From Chlamydiota bacterium (GTDB taxonomy: Bacteria > Chlamydiota > Chlamydiia > Chlamydiales > Rhabdochlamydiaceae), in contig JAZKBL010000012.1 of the NCBI GenBank assembly GCA_040388665.1, positions 67,390 through 131,389 on the forward strand: 64,000 bases of DNA, in the 5' to 3' direction. This document shows, in pieces, positions 39,376-54,050 of this stretch. The notes below the pieces were generated by a model. The model saw nothing but the letters and a program-made list of their open reading frames with translations. It was not told the DNA's origin and ran no database searches. The stretch's first letter is position 1; each line of letters opens with the position of its first letter. The translations under genes and the position numbers were made by a program.

Positions 39376-42300
39376 TTAAGGATGATTTTCAAGGATGTGC
39401 TGCGCGCTTGACTCCAGATCAACTGATTCATTTTCAACAGGTAGCTCTTGAGTAGGGTCGTATAAGATGGCGCACGTGTTTTCGGGGATTGAATAAACTC
39501 CGTGTCCAGCATTATCGAGGGTGTCTACATATTCAAAAGGGCCTTTTGTGGAAAATGATTCTAAAGACCCTTTGTAAAGGTTTTTACTTTGAATATATTT
39601 TTTGTTTGAAACGAGGTAGAGATTAAGTTCTTTTGCTTTGTTTTTTGCGAATTTGAGAAGGGCTTTTTTTAGGGGAAGAGGATCACCATGTAGAGAGTAA
39701 AACTTATCTAATAAAAGGAGAGGTCTTTTATTTGCTTCATCCCAAAGAAGGCGTATGAGAAAGCGTGCGATTTGTTCTCCCTTCTCATTTTTTATTGCAA
39801 GGGCACGAATTTTTCCATCTGAAATATAACCTAAAATGTGAGTCCTATTTTCACCTCCATTGATGCGCAGACATCCTCCCGTTTCTTTTCCAAGAAGCAT
39901 TAGATCGGAAAAGTCACCGGTACAACTAAGCGTCCATCCTTCATGTTTTTGTGAATCAAGCATCAAAGGTTCGTTTTTGTCGCATAAGTAGTTGTTAACG
40001 AGATCATCAAATCCATTATCGCGTATTTTGTTAAGATGTTCTGTGTCGTTTCTCCACTCTGAAAATCTATTTTCAATGAGGGCTAAACAGCACTGTTTAA
40101 AAGTTTCAAGAGCAGCTGATTTGTTATATTCGAATCCACTTAAGAAGCGCTCGAAATTTAATTGATTTAAGACTCCTAAATAGGTGAAAATTGCATTTCC
40201 TGCTCTTAAGCTATCGGTAATTTTAAAAAAACTTTCTTCAACATGTTCTGTATAATCAGACCCAAAAAAATCTTTAGGTACGCTTTTAAATAAAGCTTTC
40301 AAAGGGTCTAAAGAGATGGGAGAGTTATGAATAGCAAGCTCAGAGGCTTTTCCTAGATCTATCAAAGCAGTTGATAAAACAAGCCTATTAATATACTCAT
40401 CGTCGTTATTTTTTTTAGCTATTGCGAATTTTTGTTTTTCTTCTTTCTTTTTAGAAGCAATCTTTTTTGAGCCTGGTTCAGTTCTTTGTTTTTTTATTGG
40501 ATTGAAGAAAATTTGTTGTAGAAGTGTTTCTTTGTTTTCACGTAAGAATTTTTCGTTCCGTTGAAGACTTAGTAAAAATGACATCAGCTGTGTTTTATGA
40601 GTTCTATCGTTAAAAAGATGGCTAGCAGATTTTAGACTTTTACTCCATTCATTGCGTGAGGTATTTTGCAATTTGGAGAGAGTTAAGTCCCCTAAAAAGA
40701 AAGCAAGGTCTAGTTTCGGAGGTAAGGGATTATTTTTCCATGTTTCCCATTGGTTAGATAGGATGTGCTCAGACAGAGATCTACGTACAACAAAGAATTG
40801 TTCTTCTGCTAGAATCTTGTTTTTTGAAAATGCGCGGATGAGACGGGTTAGCCGTGGTTGAATTTCTGGATGTTCTGATATAAGCCCCATGTATATTATT
40901 GCAGATCCTGCGCTGGAGACGCCGATTTTTCGAAGATCTTCAAAGACAGGTTTTAATTCAGGAATTAGATCGCCGCAAATGTCTAAAAAACAATGGGAAC
41001 TTAGTCCAAAAGGAAAATTTCCATAAAGCTTGTGGACAATGATATCAATAATCTTGAGCGCCTCTGTCTTATTGGCTATTTTAATGATTTCAAAATTTCT
41101 AACTAATTCAACCGGATGTTTTTCTGCGATGAGCTCCAAATTCAGGATATTTAACATGAGAGCATGTTGCTCTGAATTGAGATCTCGAAATTGATGAAAG
41201 TTGGTAATAACGAGTAAAGAGGCATTTTTTGCAAGAATTTTGACAAGTTGAGAGCAGCGCTCTGAATTGTCAATCCCAACTGGACTTAAATTAAATAGAT
41301 CAAAGTGAGGAACTATTAGTTCAGGTTTTGTTTCTGCAAAGCTCTCTAATGGTAACATCTCTGAGACTTCAAAAATCTGCTCAATGCTGAGTTGTTCAGA
41401 CTTGCGCATAGAGAACAATATTGAGAAATTTTTAATAAGATCTTCAGGGGCTTTTTCTGCCAGGATTTTCAAGATTTGAAAGCTGTGATTTGGATCAAGT
41501 TTTTTTAATGCATCGGCTTTTTTGATTACTTTTTTAGGAGCTTTTTCTGCTAGGATTTTCCAGATTTGAAACTTGTGATCTGGATCAAGTTTTTTTAATG
41601 CATCGGCTTTTTTGATTACTTTTTCAGGGGCTTTTTCTGCTAGGATTTGCCAAAGTTGAAAACTGTGAATTGGATCAAGATTTTTAAATTCGTAAGATTT
41701 TTCGATTACTTTTTCAGGAACTTTTTCCGATAGGATTTGCCAAATCTGAAAGCTGTGAGTTACATCAAGCTTTTTAATAAACAAGTAATAATTTTTGATG
41801 GTTACTTCAGGGACTTTTTCCGCAAGGATTTCCCAGATCTGAAACCTGTGATCTGGATCAAGGCCTTCAAATTTATAAGATCCTTCAACCGTCGCTTTAG
41901 GAACTTGTTCTGCAAGGCTTTTCCAGATCTGAAGGACTTGTATTGGATCAAGCTTTCTGATAAATTCGTAAGATTTTTTGATTGCTGCTTCAGGGACTTT
42001 TTCTACTAGGATAGTGAGGATCTGAAAATATTGCTCAGAATTGAGCATTTCAAACCTGTATAAGCTATTGAGTAACTCAAGAGGATCTCTTTCTGTAAGA
42101 GCCAAAGCGAGCTGGAAGCAATGATCATTGTTTTGAGATTTAAAGTGCTTTAAATAGATAAGCGCAGTTGACCAGTCGGAGTTTGCTATTTTTGAGATTC
42201 GTTTAAAACGTTCTTCATCTGCAATATTTATTATTTCTTTTTTAATAACATGTTGAATGAACTTGTCTTTTAAAACTTCTTCATGTTTGATTTCAGGGTT

Positions 42301-42408
42301 TTTGTTCCAAACTTTTGTTGCATAAGTAGTTAGAGTTTCATAGGTTAAAAAACCAAACGTCTCACAAATGGGTGCTATTAATTTTTTTAAATTATTATCT
42401 ATCGACAT
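39376..42408 (-). CDS. 1010-aa tandem-repeat protein (about 8 x 30-aa helical repeats); candidate effector
   Basis: Repeats of consensus 'FQIW.ILAEK.PEKVIKK...LKKLDP.H.' across roughly aa 97-332. AT-rich leader. No catalytic motif recognised. Confidence 0.8.
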   Translation of the reverse strand: MSIDNNLKKLIAPICETFGFLTYETLTTYATKVWNKNPEIKHEEVLKDKFIQHVIKKEIINIADEERFKRISKIANSDWSTALIYLKHFKSQNNDHCFQLALALTERDPLELLNSLYRFEMLNSEQYFQILTILVEKVPEAAIKKSYEFIRKLDPIQVLQIWKSLAEQVPKATVEGSYKFEGLDPDHRFQIWEILAEKVPEVTIKNYYLFIKKLDVTHSFQIWQILSEKVPEKVIEKSYEFKNLDPIHSFQLWQILAEKAPEKVIKKADALKKLDPDHKFQIWKILAEKAPKKVIKKADALKKLDPNHSFQILKILAEKAPEDLIKNFSILFSMRKSEQLSIEQIFEVSEMLPLESFAETKPELIVPHFDLFNLSPVGIDNSERCSQLVKILAKNASLLVITNFHQFRDLNSEQHALMLNILNLELIAEKHPVELVRNFEIIKIANKTEALKIIDIIVHKLYGNFPFGLSSHCFLDICGDLIPELKPVFEDLRKIGVSSAGSAIIYMGLISEHPEIQPRLTRLIRAFSKNKILAEEQFFVVRRSLSEHILSNQWETWKNNPLPPKLDLAFFLGDLTLSKLQNTSRNEWSKSLKSASHLFNDRTHKTQLMSFLLSLQRNEKFLRENKETLLQQIFFNPIKKQRTEPGSKKIASKKKEEKQKFAIAKKNNDDEYINRLVLSTALIDLGKASELAIHNSPISLDPLKALFKSVPKDFFGSDYTEHVEESFFKITDSLRAGNAIFTYLGVLNQLNFERFLSGFEYNKSAALETFKQCCLALIENRFSEWRNDTEHLNKIRDNGFDDLVNNYLCDKNEPLMLDSQKHEGWTLSCTGDFSDLMLLGKETGGCLRINGGENRTHILGYISDGKIRALAIKNEKGEQIARFLIRLLWDEANKRPLLLLDKFYSLHGDPLPLKKALLKFAKNKAKELNLYLVSNKKYIQSKNLYKGSLESFSTKGPFEYVDTLDNAGHGVYSIPENTCAILYDPTQELPVENESVDLESSAQHILENHP
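41413..42120 (-). repeat. in-frame 90-bp tandem repeat array inside the 1010-aa gene
   Basis: About 8 units. The units around 41479-41661 are nearly identical at the DNA level (ttttctgctaggattttccagatttgaaa...). Confidence 0.8.
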
Positions 42409-47989: not shown

Positions 47990-48412
47990 TCATTTAGAAT
48001 TCTTTACCATCATGATAATTTGAGGATGTGTTTTGCGAGTTTCTGCAATTCTCTCCTGTAAAAATAAAGGAGCTTGACTCTCTGGCACTTTTTTAAATCC
48101 AATCCGATTATAAAAATCTTCAAGCCACTGATACGAAATACACCAACAAACATCGCGTTCAATCAAGAAGTTGACCTCATTTAAAATACGGGTTCCAACT
48201 CCTTGTCTTTGAAAAATTAGGGCAATCTGCATACCCCGCAATACAAAAATGTCTTCTTCTATCGAAATACGAGCTGCTCCGATAATACGATTTTGAGATA
48301 TTGCACCGATAACTCTATCTCCCTCTTCAATCTTTTTCAAATAGCCTACTGTGTTATAAAAATCCTGAACCTCCCCGTATTTTTCTTTAAGAAGAATATC
48401 GACAATAACCAT
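47990..48412 (-). CDS. small GNAT-family acetyltransferase, translationally coupled to higA
   Basis: 'GMQIALIFQRQGVGTRIL' acetyl-CoA motif. ATG 48412 lies 1 nt after the higA stop (TAAcATG). Confidence 0.75.
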   Translation of the reverse strand: MVIVDILLKEKYGEVQDFYNTVGYLKKIEEGDRVIGAISQNRIIGAARISIEEDIFVLRGMQIALIFQRQGVGTRILNEVNFLIERDVCWCISYQWLEDFYNRIGFKKVPESQAPLFLQERIAETRKTHPQIIMMVKNSK

Positions 48413-48413
48413 G

Positions 48414-48716
48414 TTAGACAATCACTTTTGTTTTTCGTCTAACTCTAATCAAAGGACGGATTTTTAACTTTTGAGACCGAAGCGACCATAAGTCAACAGC
48501 CATTTGTGCATTTAGCCAAAAGTCAGGTGTCGTCTCAAAAGCAGCAGCAAGCTTGAGTGCCATTTCAGGTGTAACACTCACCTTTTCATTTACAATTCGA
48601 TTGATTACTTTGTAATCACAGCCCAGATGCTCGGCAAGTTCCTTCTGCGTTAACCCCAACGGTTTCAAAAATTCCTCGCTCAGGATCTCCCCTGGCGTTG
48701 TCGGCTTCCTCTTCAT
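48414..48716 (-). CDS. higA: HigA-family antitoxin (VapI/XRE HTH)
   Basis: 'PTTPGEILSEEFLKPLGLTQKELAEHLG....INRIVN.K..VTPEMALKLAAAF.TTPDFWLN'. GGAGG RBS overlaps the higB stop. Start trimmed to 48716. Confidence 0.85.
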   Translation of the reverse strand: MKRKPTTPGEILSEEFLKPLGLTQKELAEHLGCDYKVINRIVNEKVSVTPEMALKLAAAFETTPDFWLNAQMAVDLWSLRSQKLKIRPLIRVRRKTKVIV

Positions 48717-48726
48717 AATCCCCTCC

Positions 48727-49020
48727 TCAATGATAATCAATAATTCGCACGTCATAAGGCTGATTATCCCAACGAAATACAATCCGCCATTGCTCATTGA
48801 TCCGAATGCTATAACATCCTTTTAAATCTCCGCTTAAAGCCTCCAACCGATTACCTGGAGGACTTCGCAGGTCCTTTAACTCGCACGCATAGTACAACAT
48901 ATCAAGCTTTCGTCGCACAATCGCCCGGATACTTGCCCATCCCTTCCTCGAAGGAGCTCTTCCGCTCTTAAAAAAGACCTCGAAATCTTCATCTTGAAAA
49001 GACCGTATGACCATCTTCAA
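48727..49020 (-). CDS. higB: HigB-family toxin (plasmid maintenance system killer protein)
   Basis: 'IRSF.D...E.FF..GR......W..I...V.RKLDML..A..L.DLRSPPGNRLEALSGDLKG.YSIRIN.QWRIVF.W......V.IIDYH'. Confidence 0.8.
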   Translation of the reverse strand: MKMVIRSFQDEDFEVFFKSGRAPSRKGWASIRAIVRRKLDMLYYACELKDLRSPPGNRLEALSGDLKGCYSIRINEQWRIVFRWDNQPYDVRIIDYH

Positions 49021-49133: not shown

Positions 49134-49240
49134 CCCCCAATTGGAGCCCGAGTCAAATTTCAAAGATCTTCAAATAACACAGTGTGGGCAACACGGGCTA
49201 TTCAAAGATCTTTGAAATTTGACCGGGATACGATTGGGGG
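49134..49240. repeat. 107-bp imperfect palindrome abutting the tRNA-Tyr fragment
   Basis: Arms 49134-49170 and 49205-49240, including a perfect 19-bp inverted repeat gtcaaatttcaaagatctt / aagatctttgaaatttgac. The right arm's last 6 nt (49235-49240) are also the first 6 nt of the tRNA-Tyr fragment. Confidence 0.65.
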
Positions 49241-49291
49241 CGGTGTGACTCGAACACACGGACTCCGAAGAGGAGGGATTTACAGCCCTTG
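49235..49291 (-). repeat. direct copy of the 3' part of tRNA-Tyr (att-like remnant)
   Basis: Identical to 53969-54020 (discriminator through anticodon loop). Similarity then continues across a 1-nt gap to 49291. Same orientation as the intact gene. Confidence 0.75.
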
Positions 49292-49657
49292 AAAATCAAT
49301 AAGTTACAACGAGCTACGCAACTTAACAGTAAGGCAATCAAAAAGATACATTAAAAAGTTTTTGGTAATTTCCTGTGAAAAATCGCCAATCCTTTTTTTC
49401 ATTTGCACCACTGATGCACCAAATACTCTTCTCTTACAAAATCATGCGCACGCGAACATATCCTTAAAATAAGCTGTTCATTTGTTGACAAGGTGACCTT
49501 GTAAACGACTGCCACCATCGGCGTCTTGATGGTCGATGCGCTCAAAAATTGCACTTTAAAAATGCAGCCTCTACCGATGCAAAAGGATAAGACGATCCGC
49601 CTTGCTCTCACGCTTTATTATCTTTAGCAATCATCCAGCGGTCTTTAAAAATATCTT

Positions 49658-50896
49658 TTATTCCCAGGTTACATCAACCCCGGCTTTGACATTCCCCTTC
49701 ATCTTTCCAAATCGATCCTTCTTTGTCGTTGTCTCAAGTTTGTAGGTTACGGAATTTGTTTTGTTCTTAGCAGAATATTTTACAATGTGCTCTTCTTCTG
49801 ACCCAGATATTCTTGTCTCTTCCGAAACCGTTTCTTTGTAATTGTTATTTTTAGGAGCAGTAAGACAATTTTCATCCAAGGAATCAAAACAAGGATGGTT
49901 TGTCGCACTGTCTTTACAAACGGAGTTATCGGCTTTTTTTAGCTCCGGTTCCGTTAAGCGCTTTGAAATTATTTCATTCTCAACTGTTTGATTTCCTTCC
50001 GCATCGCCAATGTAAATCATTTTATTCGGGTAATCGATATATAAGATTCGGCCTTCCAAGAAGTTCATCCCCAAAACGCCATCGATTTCATGCAGCTCGG
50101 AAGTGATGTCATAAAGATAAAGATCCGATCTCCCAAAATCTTTCCCCGCTATAACAAATTTTTCTGAAGTGAATATTGGCATACCATACTGACTTTTGCA
50201 GGCGTCTGTGCCTTCTACGACGCGTGAGGCTCTTAATAAAGAAACTGTGGACCCTGTGTCCAAGGAAAGTCGGATCTGTCCAATATCTGTATCGATATTC
50301 AAAAGCAATCCAGTTCTTCCTGTATTAAAAGGAACAACGAGATATTTTTCAGGAAAAAATCCACGCTTTATCAACACATCAAGATTATTACTTTCCAATA
50401 TAAAAAGGTTATGAAAATCTAATAACAGACTCATCTTTTCCAAGATTCCTCTACCTATCACCCCATTTTTATCATTAACAAGCTCCAAATCACTCATATT
50501 TGTATAAAGCGTGGTATTTTTTATAAAACCTTCATCAAGTTGTTTTACAACTACATTAGAAAACACACTATTTCCAACAACAACTTTTGAAATTAAATAA
50601 GCATTAGAATCATAACTATTTCCCTTTCCATCCCTTCCGACTAAGACACCAACCGGTTGCTTATCCAAACAATCCAAGATCTCCTCAGATAAAGTTAATT
50701 GAAATTTCGAACCATAATCCACATCCAATAAAAATTTAACTCCTTGAATTTCGACATCAATTGAGGGTGTTTTTGCCCGACTCATTTTCATAGGAACTAT
50801 CTGCCTTCCCGAATCTTTGACACATAGAAACCAGATAAAACTTCCAATTACTCCTACAAATAAGGTGATAGCAAAGAAACGAGGAATCCGATTCAC
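49658..50896 (-). CDS. membrane-anchored protein with two tandem retropepsin-like aspartic protease domains
   Basis: N-terminal TM. Domain 1 'FLLDVDYGSKF...VIGRGILEKMSLLLDF'. Domain 2 'RLSLDTGSTVSLL...IDGVLGMNFLEGRILYIDY' (DTG at 50252-50260). Beta-rich tail ending 'GVDVTWE'. Confidence 0.65.
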   Translation of the reverse strand: MNRIPRFFAITLFVGVIGSFIWFLCVKDSGRQIVPMKMSRAKTPSIDVEIQGVKFLLDVDYGSKFQLTLSEEILDCLDKQPVGVLVGRDGKGNSYDSNAYLISKVVVGNSVFSNVVVKQLDEGFIKNTTLYTNMSDLELVNDKNGVIGRGILEKMSLLLDFHNLFILESNNLDVLIKRGFFPEKYLVVPFNTGRTGLLLNIDTDIGQIRLSLDTGSTVSLLRASRVVEGTDACKSQYGMPIFTSEKFVIAGKDFGRSDLYLYDITSELHEIDGVLGMNFLEGRILYIDYPNKMIYIGDAEGNQTVENEIISKRLTEPELKKADNSVCKDSATNHPCFDSLDENCLTAPKNNNYKETVSEETRISGSEEEHIVKYSAKNKTNSVTYKLETTTKKDRFGKMKGNVKAGVDVTWE

Positions 50897-51909
50897 CAGT
50901 CGACCTCGAACGTTGTCTTAATTTGTCCAGATGTGTTCCCCTCACTGTCTTTTTCTACTTTACCAGAAAATCCTCCTGAGAATTCAACGCCATTTTCCGT
51001 TCTGTCTCTAACTTCGATACTAGCTTCAACTGATTTATTCCCATCTATATCTTGCGTTGCAGATACCTCGGCATGCCCTTTGCACAAAATACTGGAATCT
51101 TCTTTCAAAATGTTTGCCCAGTTGTATTCAATCGAAGAATCGAATTGGACAATTGAAAACAATCCATTGGAGCAATTTCTCTGTTCAGCCAGATAATACT
51201 GTCCATAAATCAGCCCCTGCGGTTGAAAAAGAAGCGTCAACTGCGGTCCTAGAGCACCTTCGATCCTGGTAAAATTGGACAATTCGATAGCTAGAGTCCC
51301 AAATTCACCGCATAAAACGAAAGGAATCGAATCTCTGGAATTCGAATAATCATCTTCTACTTTACTGACAACAATCTCTAATAAGCCTGGATCGCTCAGC
51401 CGCGTAAGATACAAATGTCCTATAGGGTTTTCTTGGTTTAGAATCACAAAATCAAATAACCCACAACCATCTCCAAACGGGATGAAAAGAGGATTTTCGA
51501 TATGATACTTGGAAGCAATCAAGGAAATGCCTCTATCGCACGTTTCAGCATAAAAATGCGCATACAGATCTTTAAGTGCTCTATAATACACATATCCTTC
51601 CTGATGCGACCCGATTCCCTGCAAACACACGATATCTGCATCAGACCCCAGTATCTCCTCAGAAATATTTTGATCCACCTTCACTGTAGCATTGAAAAGG
51701 GTAAACTGACTTTTTTCGGCCACTCTTTCTTCAGCATCTCCCTCCAAATAGGCATAAGAATGCACATGTACTTCCAGTCTTTTGTCTAAAAAACATTGGT
51801 AGGAATCATCAAACATCGATTCTTCTTCAACCCCGCTACATACAATATTAGAAACCATCTCATCAACTTGTACAGAGTGTGCTAACAATGTGCGTCCGGT
51901 AACGAGCAA
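50893..51909 (-). CDS. endonuclease/exonuclease/phosphatase (EEP)-fold-like protein with degenerate catalytic motifs
   Basis: 'DADIVCLQGIG' (canonical LQE has become LQG), 'ISLIASKYHI', 'PFVLCGEFG' (canonical GDFN has become GEFG). 4-nt overlap with the downstream protease gene. Tail ends 'TFEVDW'. Confidence 0.45.
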   Translation of the reverse strand: MLVTGRTLLAHSVQVDEMVSNIVCSGVEEESMFDDSYQCFLDKRLEVHVHSYAYLEGDAEERVAEKSQFTLFNATVKVDQNISEEILGSDADIVCLQGIGSHQEGYVYYRALKDLYAHFYAETCDRGISLIASKYHIENPLFIPFGDGCGLFDFVILNQENPIGHLYLTRLSDPGLLEIVVSKVEDDYSNSRDSIPFVLCGEFGTLAIELSNFTRIEGALGPQLTLLFQPQGLIYGQYYLAEQRNCSNGLFSIVQFDSSIEYNWANILKEDSSILCKGHAEVSATQDIDGNKSVEASIEVRDRTENGVEFSGGFSGKVEKDSEGNTSGQIKTTFEVDW

Positions 51910-52072
51910 TCCAAAAAAATAACTGAAGATTTCATCATAACTCCTCTTTTCTTGAAAATCCTAGCACCTTAAATAAATTCGTGCAAAAACAAAATTGCCA
52001 CCTGATCCACCCTGTAGGATCATCGATGAGGAATTAAGACTTTTGACCGGAACCCGCATCAAATTTAATTTC

Positions 52073-52102
52073 TTGACAAATCGAGTGGTTTTTTTGTATA
52101 AA
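52073..52102 (+). promoter_or_regulatory. sigma70-like promoter candidate for the AbiEi gene
   Basis: TTGACA (52073-52078), 18-nt spacer, TATAAA (52097-52102). The -10 element ends 22 nt upstream of ATG 52125. Confidence 0.35.
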
Positions 52103-52124
52103 ACCCTTAAATATTAGGGGATAT

Positions 52125-52883
52125 ATGAAGATGCCGGAGTCAGAACTCTTTGAGATAGCGGAAAGTCAGCAGGGGTATTTCACCTTTCAACAGGCTGTTA
52201 CTGCTGGGTTTAGTGATAAAAATCATGCTTATCACGTCAAATCAGGTGACTGGGTCAAAGTTTTTAGGGGTATCTATCGGCTTGCTAAATATCCGGTAGG
52301 GGAAAGGGAAGAACTTGTTCTTTGGTTCCTCTGGTCTAGAAATCGATCAAATGTTCCCCAAGGGGTATATTCTCATTATACAGCTCTTGATCTCTATGAG
52401 CTTTCAGATTACATGCCATCAAAATTACACATGACCGTTCCAATGGGATTTAGAAGAATGGCAAAAATTCCTGAGGTTTTAGTTTTACATAGAGAACAGT
52501 TGCAAGCCAATGAGATTGTGATGCAACAAGGTTATAAAATCACCACCCCTTTGAAAACCTTGATTGATGTGCTAAATGATGGTGTGCTAGCGGAGGATCT
52601 ACTAGTGCAGGCTGTTCAGGATGCTAAGAAAAAGAGACTAATCACGAAACATGCTATTGAAACCAATAAAAGATGTCCTGCTAAAATCGCTGAAAGGCTC
52701 CTAAAAATAATGGAAGAGCCGACTACCCTTCCACTACCACCAGAGGGATGGAATGTAAAATTTGCTTTGTTAGCAAAAGAATGCGGAATCAATGAATCAT
52801 TAGACCGAGCTATGGAAAGCGTTGAGGAATTTTATCAGAAGGCCGTAGTTAAAAATTTTCTAAGCGACGTATTGCTGCCTTAA
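52125..52883 (+). CDS. AbiEi-family (type IV TA) antitoxin-like transcriptional regulator, orphan
   Basis: N-terminal 'QQGYFTFQQAVTAGFSDKNHAYHVKSGDWVKVFRGIYRL' fits the AbiEi_4 domain. No AbiEii nucleotidyltransferase ORF follows. Confidence 0.65.
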   Translation: MKMPESELFEIAESQQGYFTFQQAVTAGFSDKNHAYHVKSGDWVKVFRGIYRLAKYPVGEREELVLWFLWSRNRSNVPQGVYSHYTALDLYELSDYMPSKLHMTVPMGFRRMAKIPEVLVLHREQLQANEIVMQQGYKITTPLKTLIDVLNDGVLAEDLLVQAVQDAKKKRLITKHAIETNKRCPAKIAERLLKIMEEPTTLPLPPEGWNVKFALLAKECGINESLDRAMESVEEFYQKAVVKNFLSDVLLP

Positions 52884-53060
52884 ATTTCTCCACTCTTCAG
52901 CCGATAATCCTTTACTTGCTAGCTTCCCCATGCCTACGGCTAACATTCTAAAAGCATCTGCACCGTGGCTAGCGAAATTGTGTAGAGGCTGTCTAGACCA
53001 GCACCCTAGTCGGTCGTTCCATTGCTTTTTGTAGCTTTCTAAGGCTGTGATTCCCTTAGC
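52860..53060 (-). pseudogene. C-terminal fragment of a phage terminase large subunit
   Basis: Hand translation: 'AKGITALESYKKQWNDRLGCWSRQPLHNFASHGADAFRMLAVGMG...'. The '...L..Y...W........P.H.+.SH.ADAFR' pattern is the terminase C-terminal nuclease end. No upstream ATPase part. Confidence 0.55.
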
Positions 53061-53066
53061 ACACTT

Positions 53067-53212
53067 GATCTCATCAAACCAGCAGCTTTTAAAGAGATTG
53101 ATTCCGATCTGAACCAGGCATTAATGGTCGTAGAAGACAACAAGAAAATCATCGGCACCTGTCATCTGACCTACATACCCTCGATTACTTTCCAAGGCGG
53201 AAAAAGATTAAA
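53067..53212 (+). pseudogene. internal fragment of a GNAT acetyltransferase gene
   Basis: Hand translation 'DLIKPAAFKEIDSDLNQALMVVEDNKKIIGTCHLTYIPSITFQGGKR' looks like GNAT N-terminal beta strands. It has no start and is cut off by the repeat at 53213. Confidence 0.45.
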
Positions 53213-53290
53213 TATTAGAGTTCTTCTAAAACTTCGGTAATTTTGGGAAGCTAAAATTTGTGAAGCTAAAAATAGACATGTCGGGAACAA
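53213..53290. repeat. half copy (left arm) of the 11541-11706 MITE-like element
   Basis: About 74/78 identity to 11541-11618, by eye. It ends inside the 18-bp core repeat at 'cgggaacaa'. Confidence 0.75.
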
Positions 53291-53353
53291 GTTGCTAAAA
53301 AGCTCGCCAAAGTTCTCCGCATTGATGTTGCATTATTGACAGATGACATCTAA
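53288..53353 (+). pseudogene. 3' fragment of an XRE-family regulator gene (paralog of 47114-47386)
   Basis: 'QVAKKLAKVLRIDVALLTDDI*' compares with 'QVAKKLAKVLRINFELLTNNGQK*' in the intact gene. DNA similarity starts at the shared 'gaacaag' junction with the repeat. Confidence 0.55.
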
Positions 53354-53354
53354 G

Positions 53355-53786
53355 TTACGAAAAAATACAACTGTCTTGTGAATACTCGTTAATTCTTTGA
53401 GCAGCTGCAGCACGTTGAAGTTCAATGAATCCTTCGCGACTCATAGAATGGCAAGTTGATCGATCATGAGGAAAAACTACACGTGGAGCAGATACGCGAA
53501 TATTTGCTAAATAAGCTTCATTTAAGCGAGTAAGAGAGGCTTTAGCATTCTCAAATAATTTAAGAGATAAGCGAAGGAAAGAATTGCCTTGAAATTCTTT
53601 CTCTATCTTTTCTATAAACGATCCTAAAGGCATTTCACCACTAGGTGGATCCATTTTGATTTCTTCCCAAAACTTTTTCAGGTAGTCATCCACACGCTTC
53701 CCGCAATCTTTCGAACTCGCAGAAATCTCCTGCAATTCGTGAATACAACAAGTTGAAAAATCACGTACTTCTACTAAACCACTCAT
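53355..53786 (-). CDS. hypothetical protein
   Basis: 143-aa ORF next to tRNA-Tyr. No family recognised. Confidence 0.45.
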   Translation of the reverse strand: MSGLVEVRDFSTCCIHELQEISASSKDCGKRVDDYLKKFWEEIKMDPPSGEMPLGSFIEKIEKEFQGNSFLRLSLKLFENAKASLTRLNEAYLANIRVSAPRVVFPHDRSTCHSMSREGFIELQRAAAAQRINEYSQDSCIFS

Positions 53787-53968
53787 TTCTTCCTTCTCTT
53801 TTAATTTTTATAGATACCACTAAGGGCGGCAAGCCGACCCCATGAGGGATCATCTGCTGGAATTGAGGAGATCTTTCGATAGATTTAAAAAAACGCGACG
53901 CAAGTAATCTCAATGAGCGTTCTTTAAAAGCTGCGAAAGAGAACTCAGTTACAGCGATGATAACAAAA

Positions 53969-54050
53969 TGGGGGCGGTGTGACTCGAACACACGGACTCC
54001 GAAGAGGAGGGATTTACAGTCCCTTGCAATTGCCACTATGCGACACCCCC
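53969..54050 (-). tRNA. tRNA-Tyr (anticodon GTA), long variable arm
   Basis: Minus-strand read: GGGGGTG acceptor, anticodon arm AGGGA-CTGTAAA-TCCCT, variable arm CCTCTTCGGAGTC, T-loop TTCGAGT, 3' CGCCCCC-A. No encoded CCA. Confidence 0.9.

Follow-up and report, generated by a model that had tools for sequence, protein, structure and literature searches.

What holds together two overlapping minus-strand genes, one encoding a degenerate protein of the endonuclease/exonuclease/phosphatase (EEP) fold and the other a membrane-anchored double retropepsin, is the question raised by a locus in contig JAZKBL010000012.1 of a Chlamydiota bacterium (Rhabdochlamydiaceae; assembly GCA_040388665.1). We analysed positions 67,390 to 131,389 of this contig; the whole stretch of 64,000 nucleotides is termed the window, and coordinates refer to it unless another locus (L001 and so forth) is named. 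A preliminary description regarded the pair as a unit of pseudo-enzyme and protease whose shared tail might serve in sorting, anchoring or interaction. The open reading frame (ORF) coordinates and motifs on which it drew were all found in the sequence, and the two ORFs overlap by 4 nt (GTGA), as described, an overlap that we count as support for translational coupling. The units concerned are as follows.

49658..50896, minus strand: gene 2, a 412-aa protease-like ORF with a GTG start, an N-terminal transmembrane (TM) anchor, a pepsin-like bilobe, and an extra linker and beta tail.
50893..51938, minus strand: gene 1, encoding a degenerate EEP-fold protein with a C-terminal beta tail; its true start is the ATG at 51938 or 51935.
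50893-51909, minus strand: the 338-aa ORF of gene 1, parted from the signal peptide by a 1-nt frameshift.

The 412-aa protein is 100% identical to V4494_01785 of a Chlamydiota bacterium, an NCBI protein from a metagenome-assembled genome (MAG). From the comparisons described here we read the locus as a mobile copy of a two-gene envelope cassette of Chlamydiota, in which a beta anchor or tag is combined with a cognate periplasmic aspartic protease, and we assign this reading a probability of roughly 0.45.

The element that proved most informative is the C-terminus of the gene 1 product, the last ~65 residues being the best-conserved part of the family of EEP proteins that carry this tail.

50896..51096, minus strand: beta tail of gene 1, made up of four amphipathic strands over aa 272-338 (SSILC...FEVDW).

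A tail profile built from nine sequences was used in an exhaustive search of 1.84 billion representative proteins and retrieved 158 matches at E<=1e-3. About 15 of these are false, being long proteins (1000-3700 aa) matched in multiple stretches of SdrD_B, PAS, Big_5 and similar repeats, and were rejected. In nearly all of the genuine matches the module occupies the extreme C-terminus of a protein 66-500 aa long, and the ~65-aa tail closes about 140 protein clusters with varied N-termini, among them EEP domains (intact, decayed or truncated), alpha/beta hydrolases, unknown domains and small "WNGR" proteins. An alignment of 144 tails revealed four strands with strict alternation of hydrophobic and polar residues and three D-x-[DE]-G-N turns, usually with a conserved [IV]-L-C-x-G just ahead of the tail; the terminal residue is F or W in 114 of them, and one face of the sheet is highly charged. 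Neither Pfam nor NCBIfam offers a model for the tail, isolated tails and small tail proteins giving scattered, sub-threshold chance matches to these collections. A word-indexed protein search with a 53-tail alignment retrieved two proteins, and all ten tail proteins looked up occur solely in metagenomes. The small acidic family is recognised by its MS[IV]E.[IV] start and WNG[RH].V motif, measures 110-165 aa, and comprises at least 26 clusters (including P0085, P0099 and P0131; an example lies at L012 2944-3357). A lipase-like ORF on the minus strand of L020 (2879-1761), which diverges from a protease pair, gave a weak match to the N-terminal part of this family (E=0.18).

Inspection of gene neighbourhoods indicated what accompanies the tail. 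Ten distinct loci were reached by searching with the tail (the window; L001; L002-4; L008; L011; L012/13; L030/31; L033; L032; L034), and all ten have a protease gene next to the tail gene and on its strand, the two often overlapping; at L032, where the contig ends, the adjacency is weak. The tail protein itself varies: L008 carries a 29% identical EEP-tail protein, L011 has protease paralogues on either side of two copies of a 222-aa tail protein that is not of the EEP type, and L012/13 has a 137-aa WNGR tail protein beside the protease. Conversely, in loci reached with the protease and having enough flanking DNA, a tail gene lies directly upstream in six of seven. A tail gene is found beside a protease gene in 16 of the 17 informative loci, combining both approaches. 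The expectation that genes 1 and 2 would co-occur elsewhere is thereby borne out in part: the genes do co-occur, but the pairing is not specific to EEP proteins and extends to non-EEP tail proteins. Judged by gene order, the conserved partnership is that of tail module and protease, not of EEP domain and protease, and because the N-terminal "cargo" varies or decays while tail and protease persist, the EEP domain would be incidental to it. The sources represented are Chlamydiota (the window), Chlamydiales/Rhabdochlamydiaceae (by a neighbour gene at L030) and one MAG labelled Anaerolineae. The last (L034, GCA_050257195.1; P0011) holds at least two protease genes and one EEP-tail and protease pair, and may represent either a mis-binned chlamydial contig or an extension of the cassette beyond Chlamydiota.

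The constant partner, gene 2, has homologues of ~300 aa that begin with a hydrophobic helix preceded by basic residues and in which each half contains D-x-G-S or D-T-G and then G-x-[IL]-G-x-x-[FL]-L. Its features in the window are these.

50819..50878, minus strand: N-terminal TM helix or signal anchor, aa 7-26 (FFAITLFVGVIGSFIWFLCV), modelled by AlphaFold2 (AF2) as a helix of aa 3-27.
50711..50719, minus strand: lobe 1 motif D60-Y61-G62, of which D60 and G62 are invariant and the middle residue is L, S, F, Y or I.
50252..50260, minus strand: lobe 2 motif D213-T214-G215, of which D213 and T214 are invariant.
49847..49999, minus strand: linker, aa 300-350, absent from orthologues; a predicted helix (aa 300-314), then a Cys-containing stretch, with predicted local distance difference test scores (pLDDT) below 50 over aa 314-350.

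The invariance of D60, G62, D213 and T214 applies to 17 aligned homologues. The active-site signature D-[TS]-G is complete in lobe 2 (D213-T-G) and partial in lobe 1, where D60-Y-G keeps Asp and Gly and replaces Thr/Ser. Sixteen of 17 family members match Asp_protease_2 (PF13650; best 3e-10); the 412-aa window protein yields no match to this family at E<=1. Gene 2 has no Pfam match to pepsin family A1, and the sole match of the family profile in the PDB is DDI1, which is retropepsin-like (E=0.14). The AF2 model (mean pLDDT 81, with a core above 90 over most of aa 41-290) is bilobal, a single chain whose lobes have one Asp each; Foldseek matched it to penicillopepsin (1.2e-9), the Bacteroides fragilis structure 9iy9 (5.5e-9), renin and pepsin, and one lobe superposes on APRc of Rickettsia (5c9d, TM 0.65). 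On the model, the gene 2 product is a single-chain pseudo-dimer of retropepsin-like lobes behind one TM helix, the architecture first proposed for it, and from the distribution of charges its catalytic part should face the periplasm. The accompanying remark that such a protein is unusual in bacteria requires qualification: it is uncommon, but already known, pepsin homologues having been described in bacteria (PMC2761423), and 9iy9, the second-best structural match, being a 2025 structure of a B. fragilis "putative endopeptidase".

Protease genes also occur in pairs, which we list by locus.

L011 2126-7554; L019 973-2744; L030 4606-6547; L033 627-2377: pairs of one protease gene that keeps both catalytic Asp and one that is altered.

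The altered paralogues have motifs lost or changed in both lobes (for example AVLGS/DISA, INLGT/LTTGA, INLGN/LGTGC and LDLAL/IETTA), in what looks, from these sequences, like a recurring pairing of active protease and pseudo-protease; at L020 both adjacent paralogues are intact. Two further variants of the family were observed. P0002, a 615-aa protein from a JGI metagenome, joins two complete two-lobe units in tandem, so that a single chain contains four retropepsin-like lobes. Short ORFs of 49-69 aa on longer metagenome contigs (L026 1789-1995, L027 2178-2384 and L029 3450-3596) match only the last ~45 protease residues, at 61-71% identity, and may be gene remnants or an independent mini-protein.

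The preliminary description held the C-terminal tail to be common to both window proteins, and the segment of gene 2 concerned lies beyond the linker.

49661..49846, minus strand: divergent beta tail of gene 2, aa 351-412 (ending ...VDVTWE), with strands 353-364, 367-378, 383-393 and 399-409.

Direct comparison of the two proteins by BLASTP aligned the tails at E=0.099, which is not significant, and a narrow tail profile gave a marginal result on the 412-aa protein. With the profile of 144 tails, the end of the model aligned at 16.3 bits (E~0.008) to the last 43 residues of that protein, a score that ranks second among the 1053 ORFs of the window and is reached by none of 2000 composition-preserving shuffles. 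Alignment of the C-terminus to the tail by hhalign gave E=0.001, and AF2 places four C-terminal strands in both proteins, those of gene 2 (353-409) at pLDDT 70-76 in a region where the alignment is covered by the window sequence alone. We accept the C-terminus of gene 2 as a divergent copy of the tail module, the similarity being real but weak. The claim of a common tail holds for the window, on the agreement of profile, shuffles, hhalign and model, but not for protease orthologues: no tail is present in any other protease homologue seen (~300 aa), including those encoded beside EEP-tail genes. As far as these homologues indicate, the protease tail is a lineage-specific acquisition. Fusion with a downstream WNGR gene, considered as a source of the protease's extra 116 residues on the likeness of "TVENEI" to "MSVENI", found no support: on the linker, a profile made from the N-terminal half of each of 26 small WNGR proteins scored -0.2 bits, inside the shuffle range.

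The domain carried ahead of the tail by gene 1 is diverged. Against Pfam Exo_endo_phos (PF03372) the 338-aa protein scores E=0.021 (15 bits, below the 24.5 cut-off), and ten of 90 tail proteins match the same family, at best 2e-9. A profile of 12 members of the gene 1 family retrieved CNOT6L (best, 1.2e-4), CNOT6, Angel2 and Nocturnin from the PDB; the CNOT6L alignment pairs DADIVCLQG with DADIISLQE and LCGEFG with LCADLN. The AF2 model (mean pLDDT 70, core 77-92) has the four-layer alpha/beta sandwich of the EEP fold, and Foldseek matched it to TDP2 (1.2e-6) and LINE-1 EN (1.8e-5), as well as PltC, APE1 and DNase I. The sites of the degenerate motifs are given here.

51616..51624, minus strand: degenerate EEP motif LQG, the metal-binding Glu replaced by Gly98.
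51298..51312, minus strand: degenerate EEP motif CGEFG, GDxN replaced by GEFG at aa 201-204.

None of the EEP catalytic residues sought (Glu of LQE, Asp/Asn of GDxN, His of SDH) is kept in the window protein, NGLF standing at the position aligned to the terminal SDH. Family-profile, structural and alignment evidence agree with the placement first made, an EEP fold in which LQE has become LQG and GDFN has become GEFG, and support the view that the product would be a pseudo-enzyme, having the fold but no competence as an enzyme. Among EEP relatives the motifs form a gradient, from fully intact in the tail-less chlamydial L009, L010 and P0030 to partial loss. L009, from a Rhabdochlamydiaceae MAG, keeps LQEV, GDLN and SDHH and has an N-terminal region in common with gene 1, and among the matches listed from a contig scan with the EEP alignment were two tail-less, catalytically intact EEP genes without a protease neighbour. 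A weak match to the NCBIfam TUL4 lipoprotein model (E=0.006) spans aa 229-286, for the most part ahead of the tail, and was dismissed as chance, its score being far under the cut-off.

Gene 1 is also interrupted. In its orthologues a classical signal peptide, opening with MKSS..., comes first; the corresponding segment of the window, ATGATGAAATCTTCAGTTATTTTTTTGG (51938-51911), lies one base out of frame by comparison with a 77%-identical orthologue, and ATGATGAAATCTTCAGTT, read from 51938 onward, is the orthologue start in another frame.

51911..51919, minus strand: frameshift site, T7 (51913-51919) followed by GG (51911-51912), where the orthologue has T7 and GGG in frame.

One inserted base restores MMKSSVIFFGLLVTGRTLLAHS followed by VQ, and the same frameshift is present in a separate Logan assembly. 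By this comparison it was ORF calling that produced the TTG start of the 338-aa ORF, which is an artefact; NCBI has a protein record for gene 2 and none for gene 1, in agreement with a pseudogene call. The 338-aa frame is otherwise open and 77% identical to the orthologue over its full length. The zero-frame heptamer at the site, U UUU UUG, has a form able to support -1 slippage, and expression of gene 1 by that route or by transcriptional slippage is conceivable from the sequence; the gene may be crippled or expressed solely through slippage. The locus offers a view of an EEP enzyme fold decaying while the C-terminal tag stays conserved.

The genomic setting of the pair, earlier described as that of the only intact cargo of a tRNA-Tyr island, includes the following.

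49235..49288, minus strand: att-like direct repeat at the island boundary, copying 54 nt of the tRNA-Tyr 3' half and 98% identical to 53969-54022.
53969..54050, minus strand: tRNA-Tyr (GTA), its 3' half (53969-54022) forming the other att-like repeat copy.
52125..52883, plus strand: AbiEi-type antitoxin-like regulator, an island gene (PF13338, 1.3e-10).
53355..53786, minus strand: island ORF of 143 aa with no family match.

The direct repeat flanks an insert of 4.7 kb (49289-53968) that contains genes 1 and 2, the AbiEi-like gene and one orphan ORF, in agreement with an island of this kind; "only intact cargo" does not hold for a pair of which gene 1 is frameshifted in its signal-peptide region. 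No integrase is present among the island ORFs, and a scan for an operon promoter and terminator was uninformative, promoter-like sites being fewer than in shuffles. The copy of the cassette at L002 adjoins tRNA-Met, a phage-type integrase and a YhcG-like gene. We regard the cassette as mobile because this copy borders a tRNA gene and an integrase and the window copy is bounded by the tRNA-Tyr repeat. Several neighbouring features of the window were recorded besides. Just outside the island repeat lie a HigB-like toxin gene (PF05015, 6e-20) with a helix-turn-helix (HTH) antitoxin gene (48414-49020), followed by a GNAT acetyltransferase gene (47990-48421), and these may be remains of an older neighbouring element. 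Between the repeat and gene 2, a 70-aa ORF (49399-49611, minus strand) may be a gene fragment. Farther away, a 1010-aa ORF (39376-42408) contains tandem repeats of ~90 nt (41429-42054; copies 70-87% identical) that encode a repeated "FQIWxILAEKxPExxIK" unit.

How might the parts of an envelope cassette act together? In the scheme that we favour, the tail protein would be exported by Sec, and its tail would serve as an envelope-targeting or oligomerising beta anchor; optionally, the tail could be the subunit of a mini outer-membrane barrel, resembling a trimeric-autotransporter anchor in function without detectable homology to it. The protease, anchored in the inner membrane and facing the periplasm, would act on or with tail proteins in maturation, release or quality control, its cleft binding the extended junction or a strand of those proteins, and in the window the protease's own divergent tail would direct both products to the same place. 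An alternation of hydrophobic residues closed by an aromatic C-terminus is the C-terminal signal pattern of outer-membrane proteins, and four strands of ~10 residues are the pattern of trimeric-autotransporter subunits. A Foldseek search with the tail region of gene 2 returned the anchors of Hia and AtaA as the best small-domain matches (58 columns, root-mean-square deviation 2.1-2.3), with 24% identity to Hia in the alignment.

A number of observations weigh against this scheme. The Foldseek matches to Hia are weak (E 0.3-0.6) and are equalled in score by unrelated four-strand sheets. YadA_anchor (PF03895) was not matched by any of nine tails, the Hia control scoring 9e-19; hhalign of tail and Hia gave a probability of 2%. 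No long pore-filling helix or coiled-coil stalk is predicted before the tail. The hydrophobic face of the tail consists mostly of Val, Ala and Gly and is only mildly hydrophobic, and the small WNGR tail proteins have no Sec signal, which fits poorly with a periplasmic or outer-membrane route. On the side of the protease, lobe 1 has D-Y-G in place of D-T/S-G, and of the paired genes at L011, L019, L030 and L033 one keeps both Asp and the other has lost both; since both catalytic Asp are gone from several paralogues, the activity that is conserved may be binding and not cleavage. The protease pair at L020 has no recognisable tail gene nearby, and the tie between tail and protease is one of gene adjacency. 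What precedes the tail is a short helix (aa 265-270) in gene 1 and a low-confidence linker in gene 2. Membership of the tail in YadA_anchor is ruled out on sequence, the tail profile likewise finding no YadA_anchor match in the PDB, and a generic four-strand resemblance is what is left of it.

Other explanations of the same loci were weighed. One would make the tail a cleavable C-terminal tag for sorting or recognition, removed or exchanged by the bilobal protease as a dedicated tag peptidase. It accounts well for one C-terminal domain on many otherwise unrelated proteins, for the peptidase gene linked in 16/17 informative loci, and for the conserved hydrophobic junction [IV]-L-C-x-G just before the tail, aspartic proteases preferring hydrophobic residues at P1 and P1'. 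We nevertheless think it unlikely, given that catalytically dead protease paralogues are common, that the window protease carries the tag itself, and that homology to any known sorting enzyme is absent.

Alternatively, secreted effectors, such as type III substrates, could carry the tail as a soluble module that is host-directed or serves oligomerisation, and the protease could be a regulator, an immunity factor or a binder of chaperone-like kind. A signal-peptide-like N-terminus is lacking, on a crude test of hydrophobicity, in 82 of 131 full-length tail proteins, including the WNGR family, and the charged face of the sheet and the binding suggested by degenerate protease paralogues point the same way. 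This proposal appears improbable to us in view of the classical signal peptides of the longer tail proteins, including all close gene 1 orthologues, of the terminal F/W and alternating hydrophobics, which match the outer-membrane signal pattern noted above, and of the charge distribution that would place the catalytic domain of the protease outside the cytoplasm.

The pair might also be decaying island cargo without current function, gene 1 being a pseudogene and the protease extension an accidental read-through or fusion. The frameshift seen in two assemblies, the NCBI record for the protease and not for gene 1, the lost EEP catalytic residues, the island's want of an integrase and the restriction of the extension to the window protease are all as such decay would have them. 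We rate it a poor explanation all the same: the frame of gene 1 is otherwise open, its tail well conserved in a protein 77% identical to the orthologue, and the T7 tract could allow slippage, while the protease ORF is intact with invariant catalytic residues, and its extension matches the tail profile and is modelled as four strands, an unlikely outcome of random read-through.

Least probable is the first proposal, in which EEP pseudo-enzyme and protease form a unit through Trp-terminated tails that co-fold or co-sort as a heteromer: both window proteins do carry the module, their genes overlap by 4 nt, and two four-strand tails could in principle make one eight-strand sheet or barrel, but since the protease homologues seen outside the window are tail-less even beside EEP-tail genes, and since the protease has partners among tail proteins lacking an EEP domain as well, neither tail-tail pairing nor the EEP domain can be the conserved basis of the association.

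Returning to the envelope cassette, its larger meaning can be stated only tentatively. Tail and bilobal protease could constitute an undescribed, Chlamydiota-specific system of sorting or surface display carried on small integrative islands, in which the tail is a self-assembling mini outer-membrane anchor or tag of ~140 cargo families and the protease, often with a dead paralogue, matures or releases the cargo; we consider this extended proposal rather doubtful. To our knowledge, little is known of how environmental chlamydiae, whose lineages are uncultured, build and decorate their envelopes. The locus is more than was first described, in that the tail proves to be an unannotated module of wide occurrence whose protease partner is fixed, and less, in that the EEP gene is frameshifted and bacterial bilobal aspartic proteases have precedent. 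An unannotated C-terminal domain with a near-constant protease neighbour is the genomic signature that earlier led to sortase, exosortase and the type IX secretion system (T9SS). Should the tail prove to be a minimal outer-membrane anchor, few known self-contained beta-anchor units would be smaller, and it could be considered as a scaffold for display; were the protease to process it, bacteria would offer an instance of an aspartic protease linked genetically to its family of cognate substrates, with a bearing on the disputed idea, arising from APRc of Rickettsia, that retropepsin-like enzymes mature beta-anchored surface proteins.

Limited literature searches found no prior description of this cassette, and comparison with known systems shows likeness in its parts. 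With EEP enzymes (CCR4/CNOT6L, TDP2, CdtB/PltC, DNase I and the chlamydial L009) gene 1 has in common the fold and the order of motifs; it differs in the replacement of the catalytic Glu, Asp/Asn and His, and other tail proteins have a truncated domain or none. Gene 2 resembles bacterial bilobal proteases (9iy9; the pepsin homologues of PMC2761423) as a single chain of two lobes with one Asp each, but its lobes are by sequence of the retropepsin-like Asp_protease_2 type rather than family A1, and it is set apart by its membrane anchor at the N-terminus, by D-x-G in lobe 1 and by a constant partner in the genome. The tail recalls the YadA_anchor of Hia and AtaA in its extreme C-terminal position, four strands of ~10-12 residues, tight turns and terminal Trp/Phe; unlike that anchor, it is without sequence or profile similarity, pore helix or stalk, one of its faces is strongly charged, and many of its carriers have no signal peptide.

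The closest counterpart of the protease in an obligate intracellular Gram-negative bacterium is APRc (RC1339) of Rickettsia, a membrane-embedded retropepsin-like protease that cleaves Sca5/OmpB and Sca0/OmpA in vitro (PMC4140852) and whose role in autotransporter maturation in vivo is disputed (PMC10414592). APRc resembles gene 2 in belonging to clan AA, in its membrane association, in this type of bacterium, and in having proposed substrates with a C-terminal beta-barrel anchor. It is, however, a single retropepsin domain that must dimerise, whereas gene 2 has two lobes in one chain, and the APRc gene is not a neighbour of the proposed substrate genes.

Sortase (LPXTG), exosortase (PEP-CTERM) and PorU (the C-terminal domain of T9SS cargo) exemplify systems in which one C-terminal domain is borne by unrelated cargos and a peptidase gene lies beside a cargo gene. 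No homology to their parts was seen in the family searches, where the protease matched clan AA families only and the tail matched none in Pfam or NCBIfam. The logic of those systems recurs here, with one tail on many unrelated cargos and a linked peptidase gene; the distinction is that the tag is a folded beta domain with an aromatic end and the peptidase an aspartic protease.

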